Origin: Bacillota bacterium
GTDB taxonomy: Bacteria > Bacillota > Sulfobacillia > JBFMBV01
Reading direction: 5' to 3'
NCBI GenBank assembly: GCA_040755005.1
Contig: JBFMBV010000001.1
Coordinates: forward strand, 5,692 to 69,691
Length of the DNA stretch: 64,000 nucleotides
Positions within the stretch are counted from its first letter, which is position 1; each line of letters opens with the position of its first letter. Below are positions 3,957 to 21,117 of this stretch, in pieces. Under the pieces are notes generated by a model. It was not told the origin of the DNA and did no database searches. It worked only from the letters and a program-made list of their open reading frames with translations. Position numbers and translations under genes: made by a program.

Positions 3957-5225
3957 TTACCTGGGATTGATGACGGCCAGGGCGGGGGATGAGCCTGCCA
4001 GGTGGGTGCGCAGCCGCTGGTTGACCTGAGCCTGATTCGCAGCGGCGAGGGCCGTAGGATAGTCGAAGAAGTCGATGCCCCGCAGGGCCCGATCGAGGAT
4101 CTCCCAAGTCAGTCCGGCTAGATCGTCCAGGGAGAGGACGACTTCGCCCCGTAGCTTGTTGCGCACGTCCTCCAGCAGGCCTGGGTCGATCCCGTCCGCG
4201 CTCAGTTCGCTGAGCCTGGCCCTAATCCTCTCCGCCACGCCCTGGGGGGTGTCCGACCGCCCTGACACCGCCGTCCAGCCGAAGCCCCGCTCTACGATGG
4301 AGGTAGCCCCGAAACTGGCATCCACCAGGCCCGACTCGTACAGCTCCTCATACAGTGGGGAGAGACGCCCGAACACCGCTTCGCCGAGGATGGCGTCCAG
4401 GGTCTCCCGGCTCAGCAGATCGCCGGGCCCGCTGGCGGGGGCGGCATCCTTGAAGCCCAGATGGAACAGCGGCTGAGCCACCGACATGCCCCGGGCGTGG
4501 TGGGTCTGGGCGTTCCCCGCGGGCTCGTCCGGCAGCAACCTCCGGGGAGTCCCCGGGGCCGGTCTTACCCGGGCCGCGACCTGTTGATAGACAGCCTCCG
4601 GGTCAATGTCCCCAGAAGCCAGCAACAGCATGTTGCCAGGACGGTAGAATGTCTCGTAGCACAGCTTGAGCTGGTCGACGGTGATCGCTGCGACGGATGC
4701 TGCCGTGCCGGCGATCTCCAGGCGCACTGGATGCCGGTGGTACATCGCGCCCAGCAGATCGTAGTACCCGCGCTGCCTGGGATCATCCTCCCCCATTTTG
4801 ATCTCCTGGATGATGATGTCCCGCTCGCGCTCCACCCCTGCTTGACTGAACCTGGGCGTCTGCACAAACTCCAGCAACAGGTCGAGGCACGGTTCGAAGG
4901 ATCCGGCGGTCGTGAAATAGTAGGCGGTCCCGGTATGCCAGGTGGCGGCGTTATCCATGGCGCCGAGGGCGGCGAACCTGTCGCTGACCGGCCCGTCCGG
5001 GGTCTCAAACAGCTTGTGCTCCAGGAAGTGGGCAATGCCATCAGGCACGCGCACCGTGCGGCCGTCGGGGGTCACGAACTCGTTGTCCACTGACCCGTAG
5101 GCCACGGCGACAGCGGCTGAGCAGCGCTGGGCCCCCCTGCGGGGCACGACGATCACCGGCAGCCTCGCCGGGGTCACGCCGCGCCAAAGCTCGACGCCCA
5201 GTCCGGGATGGGCCGTGGCTCTCAC
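3957..5225 (-). CDS. M16 family zinc peptidase (active subunit, HxxEH)
   Basis: HFLEHKLFE inverted zinc-binding motif; start set at GTG 5225 overlapping the upstream TGA (GTGA). Confidence 0.8.
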   Translation of the reverse strand: MRATAHPGLGVELWRGVTPARLPVIVVPRRGAQRCSAAVAVAYGSVDNEFVTPDGRTVRVPDGIAHFLEHKLFETPDGPVSDRFAALGAMDNAATWHTGTAYYFTTAGSFEPCLDLLLEFVQTPRFSQAGVERERDIIIQEIKMGEDDPRQRGYYDLLGAMYHRHPVRLEIAGTAASVAAITVDQLKLCYETFYRPGNMLLLASGDIDPEAVYQQVAARVRPAPGTPRRLLPDEPAGNAQTHHARGMSVAQPLFHLGFKDAAPASGPGDLLSRETLDAILGEAVFGRLSPLYEELYESGLVDASFGATSIVERGFGWTAVSGRSDTPQGVAERIRARLSELSADGIDPGLLEDVRNKLRGEVVLSLDDLAGLTWEILDRALRGIDFFDYPTALAAANQAQVNQRLRTHLAGSSPALAVINPR

Positions 5226-6502
5226 GCCTCGCCCTCCCCCAGCGGACACAGGGCGTAACGGGTCACCATCTCCACCTGCCTGGCCACCGCCGTGACCGCC
5301 TCGACGGTGACTGCGTTGAGCGCGCTGAGCTCCCGGTCCAGATCGGGTGCGAAGCCGCACCGGGACCCCTCGAAACCATGGTCGAGGACGCCGTGGGCGT
5401 CATCTTCCAGCATGCGCCTGACGCTGAACAGCGACTCCCGAGTGCTGTCCATCTCCTCCCGGGAGATGCGGCCCCGCCGCATGTCCTCCAGCTGCTCGCC
5501 GATGAGAGCCGTGGCCTGCTCCTGGCGGCACGAGTCGATCCCCGCCTCGATCAGCAGCACGCCGGCGGTGCTGTGGAGGACTGACCGGGCGTAGTAGGCC
5601 AGCCCCGCGGCTTCCCGGACGTTGCGGAACAGCTTGGAATGGGCGAAGCCACCGAGGATGCCGTTGTAGAACAGCAGCGCGGCCCACTGGGCGCGCCCGG
5701 GGTTGATGCCCGTGAGGCCTCCCATCACGAGTTTGGCTTGCTGTACATCGTCGCTGTCGCGGCCGTCGCCGGCGCCCGCGGTTGCGCTCAGTGGCTGCTG
5801 TAAAGGCGGTGACTGCCCCGGGTACAACCTCAATGTGCTGTCGAGCAGCTCGAGGAACAGCCCTGGCTCGACGGGCCCGCTCACATGGAGCTCGGCAGGC
5901 CAGCCCCCAACCATCTCCCGGTAGGCCCTGGTCAGCCGGCCCGCATCCACTCCCTGCAGATCCTGGAGCCTGCCCAAACGGTGCACAGCGTAGGCCCTGC
6001 CGGGGAACATGGCCTCCAGGCACCGTTGCCTGGCCAAGGCCAGCTTGTCATTGCGCAACGCGTTGATCTGCCGGGCCAGGAAGTCCCGCTCCGAGTCGAC
6101 CCAGTCCTGGCGCAGGCTTCCGTCCTGGAGGGCAGGATCCAGGATCAGTCCGGACCACAGCTTGAGGACTTTGGTCAGGTACTCCCTGCCTTCACCGATC
6201 CTGGCGGGATCCGGTACATCGAGGCCGAAGACCACCACCTGGCGCTCGCCAACCTTGGCCACATCAGCCCCGAACCCGGCCCCGTACAAGTGAGCCAAGG
6301 CCCTGGCCAGCAGGCGTTGCCCTGGGCACTGAGCCGTGCCGCGCTTGAGCACGCGCGGGATGAGGGCGACAGCGGCCGCCTCCGCTAGCTCCAGCGAACG
6401 GTGGAAGTACAGCCTGGCTACGATGGCCGTGCGGTTGCGCCTTGGCCACACGCGGGCACGCAGGCCGGACGAGAGGGCCGTCTCGACAGCGGACTGGGCC
6501 AA
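5222..6502 (-). CDS. M16 peptidase-like protein (no HxxEH; partner subunit)
   Basis: 426 aa with M16 C-terminal-like architecture; TTG start at 6502 with GGGGAGGTAGGAGC RBS; coupled to the downstream M16 gene. Confidence 0.7.
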   Translation of the reverse strand: MAQSAVETALSSGLRARVWPRRNRTAIVARLYFHRSLELAEAAAVALIPRVLKRGTAQCPGQRLLARALAHLYGAGFGADVAKVGERQVVVFGLDVPDPARIGEGREYLTKVLKLWSGLILDPALQDGSLRQDWVDSERDFLARQINALRNDKLALARQRCLEAMFPGRAYAVHRLGRLQDLQGVDAGRLTRAYREMVGGWPAELHVSGPVEPGLFLELLDSTLRLYPGQSPPLQQPLSATAGAGDGRDSDDVQQAKLVMGGLTGINPGRAQWAALLFYNGILGGFAHSKLFRNVREAAGLAYYARSVLHSTAGVLLIEAGIDSCRQEQATALIGEQLEDMRRGRISREEMDSTRESLFSVRRMLEDDAHGVLDHGFEGSRCGFAPDLDRELSALNAVTVEAVTAVARQVEMVTRYALCPLGEGEA

Positions 6503-6790: not shown

Positions 6791-8653
6791 TTGTGCGGGT
6801 TTGTCGGAGTATGGCATAAGAGCGGCGGAACCCGTTCCCGTACTCATTTTACCTCTATGACCAATACCCTGGCGCACCGGGGTCCCGATGACGAGCGTTA
6901 CGCTCACCTGGAGCATGTGGACCTGGGGTTTAGAAGGTTGAAGATCATCGACTTATCCGGCGGGTATCAGCCCATGTATAACGAAGACCAGAGCCTCTGC
7001 CTGGTCTTCAATGGGGAAATCTACAACTACCGGGAGCTGAGGGACGGGTTAAGACAACGCGGACACATTTTCGCCTCGAATGCTGACAGCGAGGTCATCC
7101 TGCACCTGTATGAGGAGTACGGTGAGGTCTGTGTCAACCGGCTGCGAGGCATGTTTGCCTTCTGCATATACGATCGTGCGGAGAACCGGCTGTTTGGCGC
7201 CCGGGATCGCTTTGGCATCAAACCGCTCTATTACCTCGAAACTGCCAACTCATTTGCCCTTGCTTCGGAGGCCAAGGCCCTGCTCGATGTTCCGGGGTAC
7301 AGCCCCATGGTTAACGAAGCGGCGATCCCTCACTATTTGACCTTTGAGTATGTTCCGGAGCCGGAAACAATGTTCAAGGGCATCTACAAGATTCCGCCCG
7401 GACATTCCTTTGTGTACAGCAGCGGGAAGCTGACCCTCTCGCGTTACTGGGAGGTCAACTTCTCACCCGTAGACAAACCCTTTGCCGAAGTTTTGGAAGA
7501 AACGCGACAGGTCATGCGCGAAGCGGTAAAACTGCATACCCAAAGCGATGTTCCCTTGGGGGCGTTCCTATCGGGAGGAATCGACTCAACCATAATCGTG
7601 GCGCTGCTCAGGGAACTTGGGCATGTGTCCACCTTTAGTGTAGGCTATGAGGAATCGGCTTACAGTGAGCTTTCCGAAGCGGCAGAAACCGCGCGCTATC
7701 TGGAGACCGAGCATGAAGAGTATGTGATTGAGCCGGATGAGTTCTGGGCACACCTCCCCCGGCTGATCCATCATTTCGACGAACCGGTGGCGGATCCGGC
7801 AGCGATCTCGCTCTACTTCGTAGCGCGGATGGCCAGAAAGAAGATAACCGTAACCCTGTCCGGAGAAGGCGCGGACGAGCTCTTCGGAGGATACGCGATT
7901 TACATGGAACCGCGCGCGCTCCAGCCCCTGAGTATGTTACCCCCGCCCATGTTGCAGGCCCTGGGGGCGGGCTCCCAACTCCTGCCGGGGTTCATTCCGG
8001 GGAAGAACTACCTGCGCCGGGCCTCTACTCCGTTAAGAAACCGCTTTTACGGAAACGCTCATATCTTCAACGAAGATGAGAAGCGGGCTCTGCTGAAGGA
8101 CAACCAGTTTGTGCCGGCAACGGCCGTAACCGGCCCCCTGTATGACAGAGCCGCCGCCTACGACGACGTGACCAAAATGCAGTATATCGACCTGCATACA
8201 TGGATGGTAGGGGATATCTTGGTCAAAGCGGACAAGATGACCATGGCCAATTCACTGGAGTTGAGGGTTCCCTTCCTGGATCACCACGTCTTTGAGTTTG
8301 CGTCCACTATACCTACGAAATACAAGATCCGCAAAGGCCTCACCAAGTACGTGCTGCGGCAGGCCTTTGCCGGTATTGTTCCCCCAGCTGCCGTTTCCCG
8401 TCCCAAGCGGGGTTTCCCGGTGCCCACCCGTGTGTGGCTCAGGGGACCGATGGGGAAGAAAGCGGAGGAACTCCTGATGGATCCATCGCTGGGGCAGTTC
8501 TTTAGCCCCGCGCCGGTGCGAAAGTACCTGAGCGAACATCGGCTGGGGAAAGCAGATCACAGCCGGAAGATCTGGAGCCTGGTCATTTTCACCCTGTGGT
8601 GGGAGTGTTTCTTCCCCGGTTCACTAGCATCATTGAGCGAAGCCTCCGGTTAA
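6791..8653 (+). CDS. asnB: asparagine synthetase, glutamine-hydrolysing
   Basis: TTG-Cys start (M-CGFVG N-terminal nucleophile) after GGGAGGGAAGGA RBS; SGGIDS PP-loop; about 55% GC versus about 68% flanks. Confidence 0.85.
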   Translation: MCGFVGVWHKSGGTRSRTHFTSMTNTLAHRGPDDERYAHLEHVDLGFRRLKIIDLSGGYQPMYNEDQSLCLVFNGEIYNYRELRDGLRQRGHIFASNADSEVILHLYEEYGEVCVNRLRGMFAFCIYDRAENRLFGARDRFGIKPLYYLETANSFALASEAKALLDVPGYSPMVNEAAIPHYLTFEYVPEPETMFKGIYKIPPGHSFVYSSGKLTLSRYWEVNFSPVDKPFAEVLEETRQVMREAVKLHTQSDVPLGAFLSGGIDSTIIVALLRELGHVSTFSVGYEESAYSELSEAAETARYLETEHEEYVIEPDEFWAHLPRLIHHFDEPVADPAAISLYFVARMARKKITVTLSGEGADELFGGYAIYMEPRALQPLSMLPPPMLQALGAGSQLLPGFIPGKNYLRRASTPLRNRFYGNAHIFNEDEKRALLKDNQFVPATAVTGPLYDRAAAYDDVTKMQYIDLHTWMVGDILVKADKMTMANSLELRVPFLDHHVFEFASTIPTKYKIRKGLTKYVLRQAFAGIVPPAAVSRPKRGFPVPTRVWLRGPMGKKAEELLMDPSLGQFFSPAPVRKYLSEHRLGKADHSRKIWSLVIFTLWWECFFPGSLASLSEASG

Positions 8654-9461
8654 CCCGTGGGTGAACCCCCTTGCGGCGGCCCAATCCCGCCGCAAGAAAG
8701 CTCTGGGCGTGATCACAGCACGAAGCGTCCACTCCACGGTGATGACCGCCCACGCCCAAGGCAGGCCAAGACCCAAAACCCTGACCACCAGGTAGAAGAG
8801 GGGTACCCTCAGCACCCACGCCGCCAGGGCCGTGATGCGCATGGGGGTACGCGTGTCCCCGGCCCCCCTGAGGGCGCCGTTGAAGGCCTCGGTGATGGCG
8901 ATGCCTGGTTGGGTAAGGGCCGCCACGCGCAAACAGGGAACCGGCCAGGAGCACCACGGTGTCCTGGCCGGTGAACAGCCGTAGCAGGGCCGCGGGAACC
9001 GCGAGGAACACCAGGGCGATGGCGCCCATGGCCACCAGGCGCATGTAGCCCGTCCCAGGGATGATGACCGCCTGGCCCATGGCTGCCAGCCGGAAAACGT
9101 GCGGGGCCACGGCCCGCAGGCCGATCGTGAGCAGGACCCCGAGGGCGACCGCCCCACCCACGCCCGCGCCGGCGATAACACGGCAGGCGTCCTTGTCGCC
9201 ACGGCCAGTGGCTTGGCTCACCAACACTTGCGTGCCCATGCTGACCGCAAGCGTGCAGACCCAGATCACCGTCCAGACAATCTGAGCCCCCAGGCTGACC
9301 GCGCTAAGCGCTTCGGCGCCCAGCCGTGCTACCATCGCTGTGTCGACCACCCAGACCAGCATGTGCAGGGACATCTCGATGATGGCAAGCCAGGCCAGAG
9401 TGAGGAAGAGCAGGCGGCGCTCGGCCGGGGAAGCAGGCAGTGGTACGGCGTCCGGGCTCAT
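8630..9461 (-). pseudogene. MATE efflux transporter remnant: first half only, with an internal frameshift
   Basis: Frame A (9461 down to about 8945) has the MATE N-terminus; frame B (about 8926 to 8630) has the AITEAFNGALRGAGDTRTPM MATE motif; switch near tttgcgcgtggcggccctt; ends where TM7 should begin, overlapping the asnB 3' end. Confidence 0.55.
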
Positions 9462-10837
9462 GGCCCCACCTTGGCCCTGACCAGTGCCTCCAAGGCGGGC
9501 TTCGTGTTGAGGGAGGGGTCTTCCAGGACCTCCTCCAGGAGCTCGCGCAGCAGGCGCCCGACCTCGGGCCCGGGGGGCAGCCCAGTGAGGGTCATCACGT
9601 CATGGCCGTCAATGGCCAGGTCCTTCAGGCCGAAGGCGGCGTCCTGGGCCAGCACCTGTTCAATGCGGCGGAGCAGCCGTGCGGTTCCCTTGGAGATAGG
9701 TCCAGGCTTCTTGCCGGAGGCCTTCCTGTCCGCCTCGCGCAACCGCAGCAGGTCGTCCATATGCTCGAGCCCTACCCGCTTGATCAAGCGGCGGATGGCC
9801 GGGTCTTTCATCTGCCGTTGGTAGTGGAGGGCCATATGGTGTTTGATCAGGTGGGACACGCCGTCCACGGTCTGGTTGTCGAACTTGAGCCGTTTGAGGA
9901 TACGTCTGGCCAGGCCGGCCCCGACGTGCTCATGATCAAAGAAGTGCCGTGCGCCGTCGGCGGACACCGACAGGCACCGCGGCTTCGCGACATCGTGCAA
10001 GAGGGCGGCCAGGCGCAGCCTGAGGACTGCTGGGACGGCGTCGAGCGCTACCAGGCTGTGTTCCCAGACGTTGTAGGCGTGATGCACATTTTGCTCCATG
10101 CCCACGCCCTCGAGCAGCTCGGGCAGGAACTGCGCCAGCAACCCGCTTTCCCGAAGCCGTTCCATGGCCCAGGCAGGCCGGGCAGTCAGGAGCATGTTGG
10201 TGAGTTCATCGCGGATGCGTTCGGCGCTGATGTTCCCGAGCAGATGAGCCAGGGGCGGGATAGCCGCCCACGTTGCAGCGTCCAGCTCCATGCCGAGTTG
10301 GGCGGCGAAGCGTACCGCCCTGAGCATGCGCAAGGCGTCCTCATGGAAGCGCTCGGCCGCGTCGCCCACGGCCCGCACGACCTTAAGCCGCAGGTCGGTC
10401 AACCCTCCGACTACGTCGATTAAGCGCCCCCGTCTGTCCAGGGCGAGCGAGTTGATGGTGAAGTCCCTGCGTTTGAGGTCTTCAGCCACATCGTCCACGA
10501 AGCGCACCTGATCCGGCCGGCGGTGATCGCTGTACCCGCGTTCCACCCGGTAGGTGGTGACCTGGACGGGGCGCAGGCTGAGCACAGTGACAGTGCCGTG
10601 CTTGATCCCGGTGGGCACGGATCTCGGGAACAGGCGCCGGATCTGCTCGGGCAAAGCGCTGGTGGCCAGATCCCAATCAGCGGGGGTCCTGCCCAGCACT
10701 AGGTCGCGCACCCCTCCGCCGACGGCGTACGCACTGTGGCCCTGCCGCTCCAGCTCTCCCATCACGTCGCGGACGTAAGCGGGGATGAAGCGGAAAGGCA
10801 GCAACCGCAAGGCAAGCAGCCTGGGAGTAAAGGACAC
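9458..10837 (-). CDS. cca: CCA-adding tRNA nucleotidyltransferase
   Basis: GHSAYAVGGGVRDLVLG, RDFTINSLA and HD-domain HDVAKP motifs; stop overlaps the MATE remnant start (ATGA). Confidence 0.85.
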   Translation of the reverse strand: MSFTPRLLALRLLPFRFIPAYVRDVMGELERQGHSAYAVGGGVRDLVLGRTPADWDLATSALPEQIRRLFPRSVPTGIKHGTVTVLSLRPVQVTTYRVERGYSDHRRPDQVRFVDDVAEDLKRRDFTINSLALDRRGRLIDVVGGLTDLRLKVVRAVGDAAERFHEDALRMLRAVRFAAQLGMELDAATWAAIPPLAHLLGNISAERIRDELTNMLLTARPAWAMERLRESGLLAQFLPELLEGVGMEQNVHHAYNVWEHSLVALDAVPAVLRLRLAALLHDVAKPRCLSVSADGARHFFDHEHVGAGLARRILKRLKFDNQTVDGVSHLIKHHMALHYQRQMKDPAIRRLIKRVGLEHMDDLLRLREADRKASGKKPGPISKGTARLLRRIEQVLAQDAAFGLKDLAIDGHDVMTLTGLPPGPEVGRLLRELLEEVLEDPSLNTKPALEALVRAKVGP

Positions 10838-10841
10838 GGGG

Positions 10842-12428
10842 TCACCTCCGGGGCTGGCGCTGATGGCGGTCGAGGGTCGGTACTACCAGGTGGAGGGCCC
10901 GGTCAAAGTGGGCGGCCGACACCGTCATATTACCGACCTCGCTGGGATCCAAGCGTGCGTCATAGCCCTCCGGCGCCCCCTCGAACCGCTCGCGGATGCA
11001 CTCCAGACCAGCCTCCCGGCACAGGGCGGCCAGATCGGCGCCGACAAAGCGGTCGGTGGCCTTGGCCAGGGCAGGCAAGTTGACATCAGCGGCCAGGGGC
11101 ATCGCCCTGGCATGTATCTTCAGGATAGCCAGCCTCTGCTCCTCACCTGGGGGACTGATCTCCAGCAAGAAGTCGAGGCGGCCCGGACGCTTTACGGCTG
11201 GGTCCACGTTGTCCACCCGGTTGGTGGTACCGATGACCACGACCTGTCCCCTGTCCTCCAGGCCATCCATGCAACTGAGCAGTTGGCTGACGGTCACCGC
11301 CTCGAAGTTGTGCGTGACGTTGGCCCGGTCAGGGGCGATGGAATCCAGTTCATCGAAGAGCACTACCGACGGGGCAGTCTCCTTAGCCTCGGCGAAGAGG
11401 GCCCTAAGGTTCGCCTCGGACTGCCCGTGCCACTGGGAGATGATCTCCGGGCCATTGACCAGGATGAAGTTGGCCTGGCACTCGCTGGCGAGGGCCTTGG
11501 CCAGCAGGGTCTTGCCGGTGCCCGGCGGCCCGTACAGGAGGGCCCCCTTGTGAGCCCGGATGCCCAACCGCTCGAACATCTCGGGGTACTTGAGGGGCAG
11601 TTCGATGGCTTCCCGCAGCCTGCGGAGCTCCCCATCAAGTCCCCCCACATCCGCATACCGCACCGTAGGGACATCCCGCTGTCCGTCCGGGATCCTCGCC
11701 GCGCCGGCCGACGGCGTAGCCGACACGGGGGTCGCCTCGCGTTGGCGCTTCTCCACGCCCACTACCTGGTAGCGGCCGTTATGCCAACCGTGCTTGTACA
11801 CCCAGTTGCCGTCAAGGCGGGGGTCGATACGCTCCGGCAGGTTGACTAGGATGTCTTCCAGCCGGTTCCTGTCCAGCAGCGGGCAGTGCCACGCCAAGCT
11901 TCGCTTGAGATAGTCGCCGACCGCTTCCCTGAGCTTGGCCTTATCGACGATGAAGACCTTCTCCTTGCTGATCCGCCCATACTGGAACCAGCCCAGGTGG
12001 TTCCCCTCGGATACGGGCAGGCGCCGGCAGGGGAACAGCTGCTTGACGGCGCCGACCCCGGTAGCGTGGATGCCCCGTCCGGTGCAGTAGCCCTGGGGAT
12101 CCGCGGAACAAGCCCCCCGCTCGTAGCAGTCCAGGAAGGCATATAGGCGGCGGAGATTGACCGACTCGCCTCCTACGGTCAGTCTGAGCGAGCGCCAGTT
12201 CGCCGCCACGCTGAGTAGGGCTCTCAGCCTGGGCAGGGCGTCGGCGGCGTAGGATACGGTGTACGTTGTTCCGTTAGGGCCGTGACGCATGGCGAAGGAA
12301 GGCTCGCTCTCAGCGACGCTGAGCGCCTCGCCGAAGTGCGCCGACGATGACCGTTGGAACTCGACCTTGATCTCCAAGGGTCCGCCTCCCATCGGGCGTG
12401 GATTATCCCCAGGGCCGTTGAGCTCCAT
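10842..12428 (-). CDS. AAA+ ATPase (Cdc48/FtsH-type single AAA module) with a roughly 280-aa uncharacterised Cys-containing N-terminal domain
   Basis: Walker A GPPGTGKT, Walker B VVLFDELD, SRH TNRVDNVDPAVKRPGRLD; N-domain has no motif I recognise; stop 4 nt from cca start. Confidence 0.75.
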   Translation of the reverse strand: MELNGPGDNPRPMGGGPLEIKVEFQRSSSAHFGEALSVAESEPSFAMRHGPNGTTYTVSYAADALPRLRALLSVAANWRSLRLTVGGESVNLRRLYAFLDCYERGACSADPQGYCTGRGIHATGVGAVKQLFPCRRLPVSEGNHLGWFQYGRISKEKVFIVDKAKLREAVGDYLKRSLAWHCPLLDRNRLEDILVNLPERIDPRLDGNWVYKHGWHNGRYQVVGVEKRQREATPVSATPSAGAARIPDGQRDVPTVRYADVGGLDGELRRLREAIELPLKYPEMFERLGIRAHKGALLYGPPGTGKTLLAKALASECQANFILVNGPEIISQWHGQSEANLRALFAEAKETAPSVVLFDELDSIAPDRANVTHNFEAVTVSQLLSCMDGLEDRGQVVVIGTTNRVDNVDPAVKRPGRLDFLLEISPPGEEQRLAILKIHARAMPLAADVNLPALAKATDRFVGADLAALCREAGLECIRERFEGAPEGYDARLDPSEVGNMTVSAAHFDRALHLVVPTLDRHQRQPRR

Positions 12429-12493: not shown

Positions 12494-12522
12494 TTGACCC
12501 TTCGGGCAGGCCATGCTATGAT
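12494..12522 (+). promoter_or_regulatory. sigma-A promoter of the proBAC leader
   Basis: TTGACC (12494-12499), 17-nt spacer, TATGAT (12517-12522). Confidence 0.6.
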
Positions 12523-12529
12523 TGGTGCT

Positions 12530-12815
12530 AATTAGCGCACCAGCGATGACGAGGAGCAGTAAGCAGCCCTGGGCGGCCCACAGAGAGCGGGGGTAAGGTG
12601 CAAGCCCGCGGCCGCAGGTAGCCGAACCCACCTCTGAGCCGCCGGCGACGAGTCGGCCGGGCAGGCTCCTGCCGTTACCAGCGGAGCAGGTGTAAGGGTC
12701 GCCTGCGGCCCCGCACCGCGGAGTGGATGGCGATGGCCATCAAATTGGGTGGTACCACGGAAGGCAGTCTTAGCCCTTTCGTCCCATGCGGACGAGAGGG
12801 CTCTGTTATTTGGGG
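12530..12815 (+). promoter_or_regulatory. T-box leader (tRNA-sensing riboswitch, presumably tRNA-Pro) upstream of proB
   Basis: GA (K-turn) motif agcgATGAcgaggAG; T-box sequence AAATTGGGTGGTACCACGGAAGG at 12742-12764; terminator GCCCTTTCGTCC/GGACGAGAGGGC followed by TTATTT just before the proB RBS. Confidence 0.7.
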
Positions 12816-12823
12816 GTGTCGTG

Positions 12824-15839: not shown

Positions 15840-16330
15840 TCAATCGTCGTCGGAGCCCTCGATGAGGTCGTCGAAATCCTCCAGCGTGGGGTCGGCCTTG
15901 ATGGCAGTCTCGATCTTAGCCAGGGCTTCTGCTTCGGTCAGCCCCGCCTCAATGAGGTCAGCCATCGCTGCGGTGATCGTGGTCAGTTCCTCTAGGGTTG
16001 GGTCTGCTTCCATGGCTGTCTTGAGCATTGCCAGCGCGGCTTCGGACTTGACACCAGCCTCCAGCAGGTCCACCATGGCTGCCGTAAAGGTAGTGATCTC
16101 TTCCAAGAGGAGTTCCCTGTCCGTACCTGCGGCCAGTTGCGCCTCCACCAGGGCCAGCACAGCCATGATGTCCTCGGCCGTTGCGCCGACGTCGTGTAGG
16201 TCAATCGTAGCCGCGACGATGGTGCTCAGCTCCTCGAGTTCGGGATCTGTCACCAAGGTGCCCTTCAGGATAGCCAACGCAGCTTCCTCAGTCATCCCGG
16301 CCTCGAGCATGTCCAGTAGCCCCGCCGCGA
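15840..16330 (-). repeat. in-frame degenerate tandem repeats (about 111 nt, about 37 aa) encoding the C-terminal domain of the anti-sigma protein
   Basis: Four protein units ending DPELEELS, (diverged), DPTLEELT and DPTLEDFD, each carrying a xEAALAxLK core; the antisense frame gives a Ser-rich shadow ORF. Confidence 0.5.
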
Positions 16331-17087
16331 TCGTGTCGAACTCGTCGCTGAACAGCTCAGGGTCGATGTCCAGCTCCGCTTGCAGTTCCAGCACCTTCAT
16401 GGCCAGCTCGGAACCAGCCTCTTCGACCAGATCAACATAGTCATCGGGCAAGATGCCAGCCTTACGTGCAGACTCAGCCAGCTCACCGGTGACTTCGACG
16501 CTCACGACCTTGACCGACAAGCCCTGCTCCTTGAGGTAGCCGTCCAGGGTCCCGCGCACTGTCTCCGTCAAGGCCGTGAGCGCTTTCTGGGGCAGCTTGT
16601 CCTCAATCGGGCTCAAGGCAATGACGATCCGACGCTGAGGATCTAACAGCCCGGCCTTGTGCAGCTCCTCCGCGATGAGGCGCAGCGCCTCATCTACCTT
16701 CTTGCCCTCGAGTTTCAGTCCTGCCAATAGGGCCTCGCCCTGAGCGTCCAGACCTTCCGCGTCCATGATCCTGTCTTTTCCGCTTACGGTCAGTCCGATC
16801 GCAGGGTTGACCTGCAAGGCCAGACTAGCTACGGCCCGAGGGGTGAAGAAAGCCATGTACCCTCCAACCACCAGAGCCACCACGGCAACCGCGGCAACGA
16901 GCTTCCCAACTTTCACTATCATCCCTCCGACAGTCGCTTTGTGGGTTGGGCGATGAACTTTGGCTTTGGCACAGTGCCCACAGGCAAGCAGGGTTCTTCT
17001 CAAGCGCTGCTGGTGTGCCGGCATGTGCACTTCGGGAAGCTGAAGATCCTCCAGCATTGCCTCCAGCTCTGTCCTAACCAACTTCAT
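15840..17087 (-). CDS. putative membrane anti-sigma factor with one TM and an acidic helical-repeat extracytoplasmic domain
   Basis: Immediately downstream of the ECF sigma gene; 55-aa cytoplasmic N-terminus, TM GGMIVKVGKLVAAVAVVALVVGGYMAFF, repeat domain; start ATG at 17087 (TTG at 17096 also possible). Confidence 0.6.
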   Translation of the reverse strand: MKLVRTELEAMLEDLQLPEVHMPAHQQRLRRTLLACGHCAKAKVHRPTHKATVGGMIVKVGKLVAAVAVVALVVGGYMAFFTPRAVASLALQVNPAIGLTVSGKDRIMDAEGLDAQGEALLAGLKLEGKKVDEALRLIAEELHKAGLLDPQRRIVIALSPIEDKLPQKALTALTETVRGTLDGYLKEQGLSVKVVSVEVTGELAESARKAGILPDDYVDLVEEAGSELAMKVLELQAELDIDPELFSDEFDTIAAGLLDMLEAGMTEEAALAILKGTLVTDPELEELSTIVAATIDLHDVGATAEDIMAVLALVEAQLAAGTDRELLLEEITTFTAAMVDLLEAGVKSEAALAMLKTAMEADPTLEELTTITAAMADLIEAGLTEAEALAKIETAIKADPTLEDFDDLIEGSDDD

Positions 17088-17142
17088 ATCGATCAACCCT
17101 CTGTTCCATTAAACTTCGCTCTGGGAAAAAGGTTGCAGCCTG

Positions 17143-17955: not shown

Positions 17956-19179
17956 TCACCGAGGGTCGGCCACAGACCCCATGAACAGCAGGGTGCCGGT
18001 CTTATCGTCACGGATGGCGAAGAAGAACGGACGGTTCACGGTCAGCTCAGCTATGCGCGGCATGGCGGTGACTCGTATCGTGACCGCGGTCACCCCGGCA
18101 GCCTCAGTGCCCGCCTCATTGACATCCACATAGGTCTTGTGCTTGACCTCGCCGATGTACGGTCTTGCCGGGGGTGGACACATGCCGCTGAAGTCCGCCC
18201 TGCCCGCCTCGAAGGCGATGCCCATGCCCAGGGCCGTCAGTGCCCCCGTCAGTTCCTGGTCGTACTCCAGCCTGAACTTAGGCAGGGCCAGCCGCACTTC
18301 GCTGTTGGAGAAGGCCGCCATCCACTCCTGCCAGGCCTCAGGGGTAAGCCTGGCATGGAAGCTGTCCAGGCTGGAGGTCTCGCTGGGTAGGAACACATAC
18401 ATGCTGACCCGGCCGCCGCCGTAAGGCAGGCCCACTGCCTGGAAACCGTCGCCCTCAAGGTAGCGGTACTGGCCGGTGCGGTGCATCAGCAGGTGCTGCT
18501 TCACTGAGCCGTCGGCCACAGTGAAGGGCCCCTCCCGCGTGGCGGCGGGGTCGAATCTGTCCGTCCAGTTGCCCTTGAAGTAGACGGCGTTGACGAGCAC
18601 CATCACGTCCATCGGGTCCAGCTGGTTGATGATGCGGTCAATCTTGCCGTTGGTCTGGCGTTTGACCCAGCTGTTGATCGTCAGGAGTGCCTGCGGATCC
18701 GCGAAGTCCAGCGCGGTCACCTCGGCCTGATAGAAGCGCTCGTTACGCTCCAGGAAGTCGGGGAGGAACGTCATGTTCCGCTCAGCCCAGATGGAGTTGG
18801 CTACCTTGAGCTGCAGCTTGGGATCGGGGTTGTTGAGGATGGTGAGCAGCTCGGCATTGGCGGCGTTTAACTCCTCCAGAGTAAGCCCGTCGAGGCCCAG
18901 CGCCTTGGCCATGGCAGCCTGGGTCGTGCCCGCAGCCCCGTTGTAGGTCATGGCCAGGGCCATGCCTATGCTAACCGGGGAAATGAACAGGTTAGGCCGG
19001 GGCTCAATGGCCAGCAGCTCCCGATAGAGCGTCAAGGCGAAGCCGAGGTTGGCCTCGGCCAGCCTGGGGTCGATCGCCTCGGCCGGCGCCGCCAACGCCT
19101 TGGCCCCGATCGTACAGCCGGCAGCTGACAGTGCCAGCAACACTGCCAGAGCGGAAGTCAACAGTTTGGTTGCGCGCAT
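17956..19179 (-). CDS. serpin-family protease inhibitor, lipoprotein
   Basis: Signal peptide with lipobox LSAAGC; NAVYFKGNW serpin motif; inhibitory-type hinge EAGTEAAGVTAV; AGGAGG RBS. Confidence 0.85.
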   Translation of the reverse strand: MRATKLLTSALAVLLALSAAGCTIGAKALAAPAEAIDPRLAEANLGFALTLYRELLAIEPRPNLFISPVSIGMALAMTYNGAAGTTQAAMAKALGLDGLTLEELNAANAELLTILNNPDPKLQLKVANSIWAERNMTFLPDFLERNERFYQAEVTALDFADPQALLTINSWVKRQTNGKIDRIINQLDPMDVMVLVNAVYFKGNWTDRFDPAATREGPFTVADGSVKQHLLMHRTGQYRYLEGDGFQAVGLPYGGGRVSMYVFLPSETSSLDSFHARLTPEAWQEWMAAFSNSEVRLALPKFRLEYDQELTGALTALGMGIAFEAGRADFSGMCPPPARPYIGEVKHKTYVDVNEAGTEAAGVTAVTIRVTAMPRIAELTVNRPFFFAIRDDKTGTLLFMGSVADPR

Positions 19180-19320: not shown

Positions 19321-21117
19321 TCAAGCGCAGGTGGCAGCCAAGAGATCCTCCAGTTGCGGGCCTTCCAGCGTCTCATGTTCCAGCAGGGCGCTGGCGATCC
19401 GATCCAGGAGTCCCCTGCACTCGACCAGGATGGCCTTAGCCCTGTCGTTGCACGCATGGATCAAGTCGTGGACTTCCCGGTCAATCACAGCCGCGACTTC
19501 CTCGCTGTAATTGCGGATCTTGGTGATGTCCCGGCCGAGGAACACCTGCTGCTCCTCACCGGTGCCGAAGGTCAGGGGCCCGAGCTTCTCGGACATGCCG
19601 TATTCGGTGACCATCCGCCTCACCAGCTTGGATGCCTTGTCCAAGTCATCATGGGCGCCGGTGCTGGCTTCGCCGAATATCATCTCTTCGGCAGCGCGGC
19701 CGGCCAAGGTGGCAGTCACCCGTTCCAGGATCTCCGAGCGGGTAATGAGGTAGCGGTCCTCGATCGGTAGCTGCAGCACATAGCCCAGGGCCGATCCCCT
19801 CGGCACCACTGACACCTTGTGCACCGGGTCAGTGTTGGGCAGCTTCCTAGCCACCAAGGCATGGGCCGCTTCATGATAGGCGACGGTGCGCTTCTCTTTC
19901 TCGCTGATGATCCGGCTCTTGCGCTCCGGCCCAGCGATGGTCCTGTCGATGGCCGCCTCAAGCTCAACCATGCCGATCCGGTCTTTCCGGCGCCTGACCG
20001 TGAGCAGGGCCGCCTCGTTAACGAGGCTCTCGATATCCGCGCCGGTAAACCCAGGGATGCGCTTGGCGAGGACGTTCAGGTCCACGTCAGTGTCCAGGGG
20101 CTTCCCCCGTACATGCACTTTGAGGATGGCCTCCCTGCCGGTGAGGTCTGGCCTGTCAATTACGACCTGCCGGTCGAAGCGGCCTGGCCGCAGCAGGGCG
20201 GGATCGAGCACGTCAGGCCGGTTGGTGGCGGCCATGATGATGACGCCCTCGTTCACCCCGAACCCATCCATCTCGACGAGCAGCTGGTTGAGGGTTTGCT
20301 CGCGTTCGTCGTGGCCGCCGCCGTAGCCGGCGCCCCGCTGGCGCCCCACAGCGTCGATCTCATCAATGAACACGATGCAGGGCTGATGCTTCTTCGCGGT
20401 CTCGAACAGGTCTCGGACGCGGGAGGCGCCAACTCCAACGAACATTTCGACGAAATCAGAGCCGCTGATGGTGAAGAAGGGCACACCCGCCTCTCCGGAT
20501 ACGGCCCGCGCCAGGTGGGTCTTGCCTGTGCCTGGCGCGCCCACGAGGAGGATTCCCTTGGGGATACGCGCCCCGAGCTCGAGGTACTTGTTGGGGTGCC
20601 GGAGGAAATCGACGACTTCCTCCATCTCCTCCTTGACTTCATCGATGCCGGCCACGTCCGCGAAGGTGACCACCCGGCGGTCCGGCTGGTGCAGCTTGGC
20701 GCGGCTGCGGGAAAACTGCACGGCCCGGTTTCCCCCTGCCTGCATCTGCTGCATGAAATAGAGCAGCAGCCCTCCGAGGATTAGCAGGGGGATGATGCTG
20801 CCCAGCAGCCCTATCCACCAGGCTGGCTCAGCGGGCAGGTCCATGGTCACGACGACACTGTGCGCTTGGAGCCGGTCCAGAAGGGTGCCATCTACGAGCA
20901 CCACGGTCTTGAACTGGGTCCCGTCGGCGAGTTTGCCAGTGAGCACTCGGTCCACGATGCGGACGGAGGCAACCTTACCGGCCTCTAGCTGCTGGATGAA
21001 CTCGGTATAGCCAAGCTCCTGAGGCTTGGACTCAGGCCTCGGCAGCGAACTGGCCAGGAACAGGGCCAGCGCCAGCGCAGCAACGTAGAACATGGTGGTA
21101 CGTAGATGCCGGTTCAC
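19321..21117 (-). CDS. ftsH: ATP-dependent zinc metalloprotease FtsH
   Basis: TM N-terminus, AAA module [15 protein letters not shown] zinc site; 598 aa. Confidence 0.95.

Follow-up and report, generated by a model that had tools for sequence, protein, structure and literature searches.

The minus-strand gene at positions 10842-12428 of a 64,000-nucleotide stretch of contig JBFMBV010000001.1 (hereafter the window), which belongs to the metagenome-assembled genome (MAG) GCA_040755005.1 of a Bacillota bacterium, encodes a classic AAA ATPase motor joined to an N-terminal domain of a previously undescribed family. We refer to this domain as X, a working name for the unnamed N-domain family defined in the present analysis, and to the protein as X-AAA. 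In the explanation that we favor, with a probability of about 0.55, X-AAA would be an autonomous ring unfoldase or remodeller in which X, probably in a metal-bound state, selects the target. The gene is followed by cca, encoding the CCA tRNA nucleotidyltransferase, and a first-pass annotation of the window had raised the idea that the AAA protein and tRNA 3'-end repair form a functional pair; we examine this idea below by comparison with other X-AAA loci.

An exhaustive phmmer/HMMER search with residues 1-251 (numbered along the 528-aa open reading frame, ORF) yielded 371 cluster representatives at E<=1e-3, 79 of them at E<=1e-10, which sets the size of the X family at a minimum of 371 sequence clusters. 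Local iteration mapped X to approximately residues 18-235 (11724-12377, like all X-AAA features on the minus strand) in each of the 160 sequences tested, and a local profile made from 156 sequences scored 213.6 bits on the window protein, which has every conserved column of the domain, including an F-x2-S-x-S loop and a D-K pair. The hallmark of X is a set of four invariant, singly spaced cysteines (C-x13-C-x18-C-x47-CP). In the alignment of 156 X domains, Cys101 (codon 12126-12128), Cys115 (12084-12086), preceded by a conserved Tyr or Phe, and Cys182 (11883-11885) are present in all sequences, Cys134 (12027-12029) in 154 of them, and the proline that follows the last cysteine, Pro183, in 155. 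Strong conservation was also found at F24, S27, S29, W78, W147, G151, D162, K163 and P198. The three cysteine motifs to which the first-pass annotation drew attention do correspond to conserved sites, except that a further cysteine in the first of them, C107, is not conserved.

Known families gave little to compare with this domain. Neither in the window protein nor in 18 other members, each scanned by itself, was X covered by a Pfam, NCBIfam or PADLOC model; nothing in Pfam and NCBIfam covered residues 1-250 of the window protein, and a scan of 90 X members returned solely partner-domain families among the 25 listed. The only match in PHROGs was phrog_16260, a function-unknown family that aligned with the N-terminal half of X alone, and a sequence-profile search of the PDB with X produced just a chance match to a de novo protein (E 0.88). 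The profile searches against Pfam, NCBIfam, PADLOC and PDB thus bore out the earlier impression that the N-domain belongs to no known N-domain family, and in the literature we found no description of the X domain or of the X-AAA architecture. A word-index search gave no sequences at all for the N-domain alone, missing even the identical protein, and only 5 matches for a diverse profile; the empty result is a sensitivity limit of this method and no sign of an orphan domain.

The true start of the gene is probably the TTG codon at 12375-12377, equivalent to residue 18 of the 528-aa ORF (10842-12428), because it lies 7 nt downstream of a GGAGG ribosome-binding site (12385-12389) read from the sequence, the identical NCBI protein (P0001, 'MAG: AAA family ATPase [Bacillota bacterium]') is modeled with 511 residues beginning with MEIKVEF, the homologues start at the same place in the alignment, and residues 1-15 of the 528-aa ORF are disordered in the full-length structural model (predicted local distance difference test, pLDDT, below 50). 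The probable coding sequence is accordingly 10842-12377, for a protein of 511 aa. Across the whole N-terminal half of the ORF, the GC content at third codon positions stays at 0.73-0.90, so that this half is coding, and the possibility that the N-terminus was non-coding or mis-called was rejected in view of this composition and of its conservation. In fact, a full-length search revealed a family of proteins of ~500-590 aa sharing 49-57% identity over 92-97% of the X-AAA query, and the N-halves of these proteins are conserved to the same degree as their AAA halves. The N-domain had initially been estimated at 280 aa, which proved too long: it has ~215 aa (residues 18-235) and gives way to an Ala/Pro-rich linker (residues 231-252, 11673-11738) that is predicted to be disordered, with pLDDT below 50, and differs in length across the family (alignment columns 310-350). 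The full-length model consists of two separate folded units joined by this linker, with a predicted template modeling score (pTM) of 0.50. We infer from the disorder and variable length of the linker and from the pTM value that the X and AAA halves are independent of each other.

The AlphaFold2 (AF2) model of X alone reached a pLDDT of 92.4 and a pTM of 0.83. It consists of a ferredoxin-like beta-alpha-beta-beta-alpha-beta subdomain (residues 19-90, 12159-12374, from the AF2 secondary structure), which includes the conserved F24-x2-S27-x-S29 loop, followed by a module with the four cysteines. The subdomain gave weak fold matches of the ACT, PII and Cas2-like types, and the whole AF2 model of X had no solved structural relative. 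The four cysteines probably bind a metal, since they are invariant in cytoplasmic proteins, and as they are singly spaced the predicted site looks more like that of an Fe-S cluster than like a zinc knuckle.

X is not restricted to AAA proteins. Its partners in 90 multi-domain representatives were zinc ribbons (32), AAA (14), VRR_NUC (10), TerB (6), RNase_T (2, one in each domain order), TPR (2) and DprA_WH (1). Individual scans identified the architectures zinc ribbon-X, TerB-zinc ribbon-X, VRR_NUC-X (in some cases with a CFI-box C-terminal domain), RNase_T-X, X-RNase_T and X-AAA, as well as X alone; an additional X-HEAT architecture was suggested by a weak HEAT_2 match (E 8.8e-4) under the Pfam cutoff. 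The names given to these proteins in the source databases cover the partner domain only. Two examples are a 'zinc ribbon domain-containing protein' of Iocasia fonsfrigidae (WP_230868234.1) and an 'exonuclease domain-containing protein' of Symbiobacteriaceae (HYF94468.1), both homologous to the window protein over the whole X and endowed with the same four cysteines. In such proteins a zinc ribbon, VRR-NUC, RNase_T, TerB or nothing replaces the AAA motor, and several of them are prophage-borne. X is, as these data show, an ancient, widespread and independently folding domain.

The genomic context was readable for five X members without AAA. Three of them occupied the same prophage slot, between a cI-like repressor/ImmA gene and an integrase or recombinase gene, namely a zinc ribbon-X protein from Iocasia (P0213), an RNase_T-X protein from a Symbiobacteriaceae MAG (P0180) and an X-RNase_T protein (P0157). 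Superinfection-exclusion or defence cargo is usual in this slot. The X loci of three unrelated prophages lie at 8001-10136 in L017, 7001-8482 in L033 and 7001-8518 in L034; the protein of L033 is also that of L036, an IMG/VR contig, and P0180 occurs in an IMG/VR viral contig. Elsewhere, P0139 adjoins an SMI1_KNR4 immunity-type gene and one VRR_NUC-X gene is found among Thy1, DEAD/SNF2 helicase and MgsA genes. A tblastn search of GenBank phages with a zinc ribbon-X protein had no match, and a scan of viral contigs with the X-AAA alignment found no X-AAA relatives. These contexts suggest that the roles of X at large have to do with nucleic acids or conflict, which is not established for the AAA fusion.

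The C-terminal half of the protein was correctly described at the outset as one canonical Cdc48/FtsH-type AAA module: Pfam detected a single AAA ATPase core (PF00004, residues 297-424, 11157-11540; 142.2 bits vs a cutoff of 21.2) and a single AAA_lid_3 (PF17862, residues 448-483, 10980-11087; 49 bits vs 27.2), and the motifs quoted then are present. They comprise the Walker A GPPGTGKT (residues 300-307, 11508-11531), invariant in the family, the Walker B VVLFDELD (residues 355-362, with D359 and E360; 11343-11366), and the second region of homology (SRH) TTNR...RPGRLD (residues 401-419, 11172-11228), with N403 as sensor-1 and R414 and R417 as arginine fingers. Pore loop 1 reads Q-W-H-G-Q (W333-H334-G335; 11421-11435), for a family consensus K-W/F-H-G-E. 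Across 12 family members there is no variation in Walker A, Walker B, sensor-1, the arginine fingers or the H-G of the pore loop, whose aromatic residue is W or F. Judged from the sequence, the catalytic and pore motifs of the X-AAA ATPase are thus all intact.

Among known motors, the closest to the AAA module is Cdc48. The module is 58% and 50% identical to the D1 and D2 modules of archaeal Cdc48, respectively, and the best matches of X-AAA outside its own family were all archaeal Cdc48 proteins of ~730 aa, which aligned to its C-terminal half only. X-AAA has in common with Cdc48/VAT/p97 the Walker A, Walker B, SRH, aromatic pore loop and AAA_lid_3. Nevertheless, it contains a single AAA module instead of the tandem D1-D2, its match to the Cdc48 model TIGR01243 is partial (profile positions 169-441 of 733; 321.9 bits vs a cutoff of 802.65), it lacks the double-psi barrel and beta-clam of the Cdc48 N-terminus (CDC48_N, PF02359, and CDC48_2, PF02933), and its hosts are bacterial (Bacillota MAGs). 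N-domains define classic AAA unfoldases functionally. PAN and Mpa/ARC resemble X-AAA as prokaryotic classic-clade ring ATPases with a distinct N-terminal recognition domain, whereas X-AAA has no coiled-coil/OB N-domain and no HbYX or GQYL-type C-terminus, and proteasome genes do not occur nearby. Its C-terminus (...HQRQPRR in the window protein) is unconserved across the X-AAA family, without an HbYX-type tail, and the PAN models NF003069 and TIGR01242 scored only 267 and 258 bits vs 500. The actinobacterial protein Cpa carries two AAA modules. It has been characterized as a Cdc48-like member of the classic-clade prokaryotic ring ATPases with a distinct N-terminal recognition domain (PMC6017811).

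FtsH likewise combines one classic AAA module with a lid, and a true ftsH gene is present in the window 7 kb away (19321-21117), but X-AAA lacks the M41 peptidase domain as well as any transmembrane or FtsH_ext region, and the FtsH model TIGR01241 scored 209.6 bits vs 600. The AAA part was also matched by the PADLOC models for the defence ATPase IetA (E 9e-30). This similarity concerns the generic AAA core; the N-domain is different, no IetS-type serine protease is adjacent (the neighbours are cca and proB) and the IteA model NF042959 scored 92.7 bits vs 510. Identity with PAN, FtsH, CdvC or EccA was rejected on scores far under the NCBIfam cutoffs, and identity with SpoVK on the lack of any NCBIfam match, though JGI gives this name to one homologue. 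By architecture, curated cutoffs, C-terminal motif and partner genes, X-AAA does not belong to the CDC48, PAN, FtsH or IetA families.

We turned to other X-AAA genes to see whether their association with cca is general. The comparison included 29 further loci, corresponding to 28 distinct places since L002 and L011 lie on the same contig. The gene was full or near-full in 23 of them (22 distinct), which makes 24 loci with the window. Flanks were short in some loci, so that the absence of cca is informative mainly where at least ~2 kb of downstream sequence were available (L002, L004, L005, L009, L012, L013, L024, L025, L029 and L030, with L006 and L028 as marginal cases at ~1.8-1.9 kb). In addition, the ORF caller took antisense ORFs in some GC-rich loci, and we kept neighbour families only if they were confirmed by Pfam.

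A tblastn search with the window CCA enzyme detected cca in only two of the further loci, L003 and L007 (63% identity), and nearby in no other X-AAA locus within the sequence available. In these two loci the order is X-AAA, a 440-aa DHH-CBS-DHHA2 gene (3221-4543 in L003, 6846-8168 in L007), cca, PNP_UDP_1 and an ECF sigma factor, with gaps of 5-39 nt; the DHH-CBS-DHHA2 gene is missing from the window. The X-AAA proteins of L003 and L007 share 83% identity, against 55-57% with that of the window, and all three form one clade. The first-pass claim of an AAA-cca pair is therefore weakened: cca lies near X-AAA in these relatives, but the adjacent pair is absent from the other loci examined, cca being confined to one clade and separated from X-AAA by DHH-CBS in both L003 and L007. 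Furthermore, the window (spoIIE-tilS-ftsH-serpin-RsgI-[proBAC on the other strand]-X-AAA-cca-[MatE remnant, asnB]-M16-M16) and L007 (tilS-ftsH-...-X-AAA-DHH/CBS-cca-...-M24-M16) share a wider block, so that the simplest account of the adjacency would be a vertically inherited regional block followed by loss of DHH-CBS in the window lineage. As far as gene order can tell, the AAA-cca arrangement is a lineage-specific trait and not a conserved functional coupling. The gene that may be a real functional partner of cca in this lineage is DHH-CBS, as suggested by the long N-terminal extension that A-adding tRNA nucleotidyltransferases possess and by the NCBIfam profile NF041569, in which the head domain occupies positions 480-710 of 880.

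In total, six X-AAA clades displayed six different contexts, with no universal neighbour. One clade (L023, L024, L025, L029 and L030) has a stand-alone LPG_synthase_C/DUF2156 gene 60-100 nt downstream of X-AAA, followed in four of the five loci by a RimJ/L-like GNAT; the corresponding positions are 8581-10047 in L024, 1524-2970 in L029, 1392-2896 in L030, 8581-10047 in L025 and 2701-3501 in L023. We take the family chemistry of LPG_synthase_C/DUF2156 to be of the aminoacyl-tRNA-dependent transferase type. Both neighbours are amino-group-modifying transferases, which could hint at substrate tagging or be plain synteny. In other clades, X-AAA was accompanied by an upstream GNAT (L021, L026, L031 and L032), by bPH_5 (L002 and L012), or by a convergent TraG-like gene with DsbD/redoxin/CcmH (L004, L005, L009, L010 and L018), the neighbours in the remaining clade being miscellaneous.

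How might such a protein work? Under our favored explanation, X-AAA would be a self-contained, single-ring AAA+ motor of the classic (Cdc48/PAN/FtsH) clade to which X is tethered by a flexible linker. By analogy with what is established for classic AAA proteins, it would form a hexamer and, with ATP, thread the bound substrate through its W/F-H-G pore loops, and X would serve as the module selecting the target or ligand. Several points weigh against this explanation. That X would recognise a target is itself an analogy, drawn from the N-domains that other classic AAA proteins carry, and the pLDDT of the X model falls to ~78-89 around C115 and C134. The AAA-cca operon is retained by two lineages with no more than 55-57% identity between them, more than random juxtaposition predicts, and the DUF2156 neighbour of a second clade has the fold of aminoacyl-tRNA-dependent transferases.

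The last two observations also belong to the case for a tRNA or ribonucleoprotein (RNP) quality-control module, in which X would recognise either the CCA enzyme or the 3' ends of RNA, leaving the motor to remodel or release the complex. The 4-nt gap between the two genes in the window, the ribosome-binding site of cca inside the AAA gene, the operon with DHH-CBS-DHHA2 inserted and gaps of 5-39 nt in L003 and L007, the fusion of X to RNase_T-family 3'-5' exonucleases in two representatives and the basic character of the window X (pI 9.4, net charge +8) are all in line with this proposal. Nevertheless, cca is near in only 3 of the 24 full or near-full loci, all of one clade, the two genes are non-adjacent in two of these three, and the syntenic block shared by the window and L007 explains their proximity by descent. 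X domains are not systematically basic (the family median pI is 7.06), VRR-NUC, the second type of nuclease joined to X, has DNA as its substrate, and the RNase_T fusions reside in prophages, away from tRNA genes. An AAA/tRNA-repair module would be notable if true, and on present evidence we regard it as quite improbable. We give a similarly low probability to the idea that X, shared by prophage nucleases and a Cdc48-type motor, is a sensor domain of a new kind, built on a metal cluster (possibly Fe-S), for a nucleic-acid end or structure or for a small ligand, and that it recruits the unfoldase to a nucleic-acid-bound or aminoacyl-tRNA-linked target; if so, the cca and DUF2156-GNAT operons would be two traces of a link with tRNA or N-terminal tagging.

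A role in conflict or defence, with X sensing a component or signal of the invader and the motor dismantling a protein complex of a phage or mobile element, strikes us as unlikely for X-AAA, in spite of the company that X keeps in other proteins. All three X proteins on long Bacillota contigs map between a cI-like repressor/ImmA gene and a prophage integrase, P0180 is part of a viral contig and P0139 a neighbour of SMI1_KNR4, X is joined to varied effector-like domains, the X-AAA loci of one clade adjoin TraG-like and integrase genes, and the AAA part resembles IetA. However, no defence genes surround the window gene, whose location is a conserved block of housekeeping genes (spoIIE-tilS-ftsH ... 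cca), PADLOC has no model that matches X, the resemblance to IetA is that of a generic AAA with an IteA score far below the cutoff, the scanned viral contigs held no X-AAA relative and no IetS-like protease partner was seen. Finally, X might deliver substrates to an unfoldase serving a separate protease, either proteasome-like or another chambered peptidase, as had been contemplated from the beginning. Delivery of substrates by the N-domain is still plausible, and X-AAA belongs to the classic-clade AAA family common to PAN, Mpa/ARC, Cdc48 and FtsH in a region that also encodes FtsH, a serpin and two M16 peptidases, but nothing points to a partner protease: the C-termini are unconserved and devoid of an HbYX-type tail, none of the clades has a protease gene as a conserved neighbour, and the scores are under all NCBIfam cutoffs for proteasomal ATPases. 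We consider this version very unlikely.

The immediate surroundings of the gene in the window agree in part with what had been read from them. The cca gene (9458-10837, minus strand), with a GTG start at 10837, encodes a CCA tRNA nucleotidyltransferase with HD domain that scored 303.6 bits vs 290 with the NCBIfam equivalog NF009814 and contains the Pfam PolyA_pol head, RNA-binding and HD domains. Its junction with X-AAA is as tight as announced: the TGA stop of the AAA gene (10844-10842) is followed by CCCC and the GTG of cca, whose ribosome-binding site GGAGG (10845-10849, minus strand) lies inside the last AAA codons, 7 nt before the start. This gap of 4 nt and the location of the ribosome-binding site suggest that both genes are probably co-transcribed in this genome, which is not evidence of a shared function. 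The ATGA overlap between the cca stop and the ATG of the next ORF (8589-9461, minus strand) is also real, but this ORF, far from being intact, is what remains of a MatE gene after frameshift and truncation. It was recognised from Pfam and the ORF list, with one MatE domain split in two reading frames (8589-9461 and 8630-9202, both on the minus strand) and the second MatE domain missing, and it is overlapped by the 3' end of asnB (8653). It may be a pseudogene that arose when the region downstream of cca was rearranged, or else an error in the assembly of the MAG.

On the other side of X-AAA, the T-box that had been noticed for the divergent proBA genes was found at 12537-12789 on the plus strand, as the leader of the proBA(C) operon and outside the AAA unit (78.5 bits, E 2e-17); its score is under the Rfam gathering score of 93, so that a default search misses it. 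A sigma-70-like promoter (12494-12522, plus strand, opposite to X-AAA) and a terminator-like hairpin (12772-12802) accompany it. The listed proB ORF (12749) begins inside the leader, and its real start is probably near 12821 (MGSTIVVKIGSS).

Other genes of the window deserve mention. A full-length bacterial serpin (17956-19179, minus strand; Pfam Serpin, E 1e-118) is encoded between ftsH and an RsgI-like gene, and bacterial serpins are uncommon. The RsgI-like anti-sigma factor (15840-17096, minus strand) has a C-terminal half made of repeated Glu/Ala/Leu-rich units of ~35-40 residues (for example, ...DPELEELSTIVAATIDL... and ...DPTLEELTTITAAMADL...). Two consecutive M16 peptidase genes (3957-6502, minus strand), whose listed ORFs overlap by ~140 nt, probably code for a heterodimeric pair, the start of the second gene having been called too far upstream.

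Cdc48-type motors are regarded as few in bacteria. X-AAA joins such a Cdc48-like motor to a family of at least 371 clusters without match in the libraries searched. Characterising X would annotate together hundreds of proteins now called 'hypothetical' or 'zinc-ribbon', and it could reveal a new sensor in the conflict between phages and their hosts.

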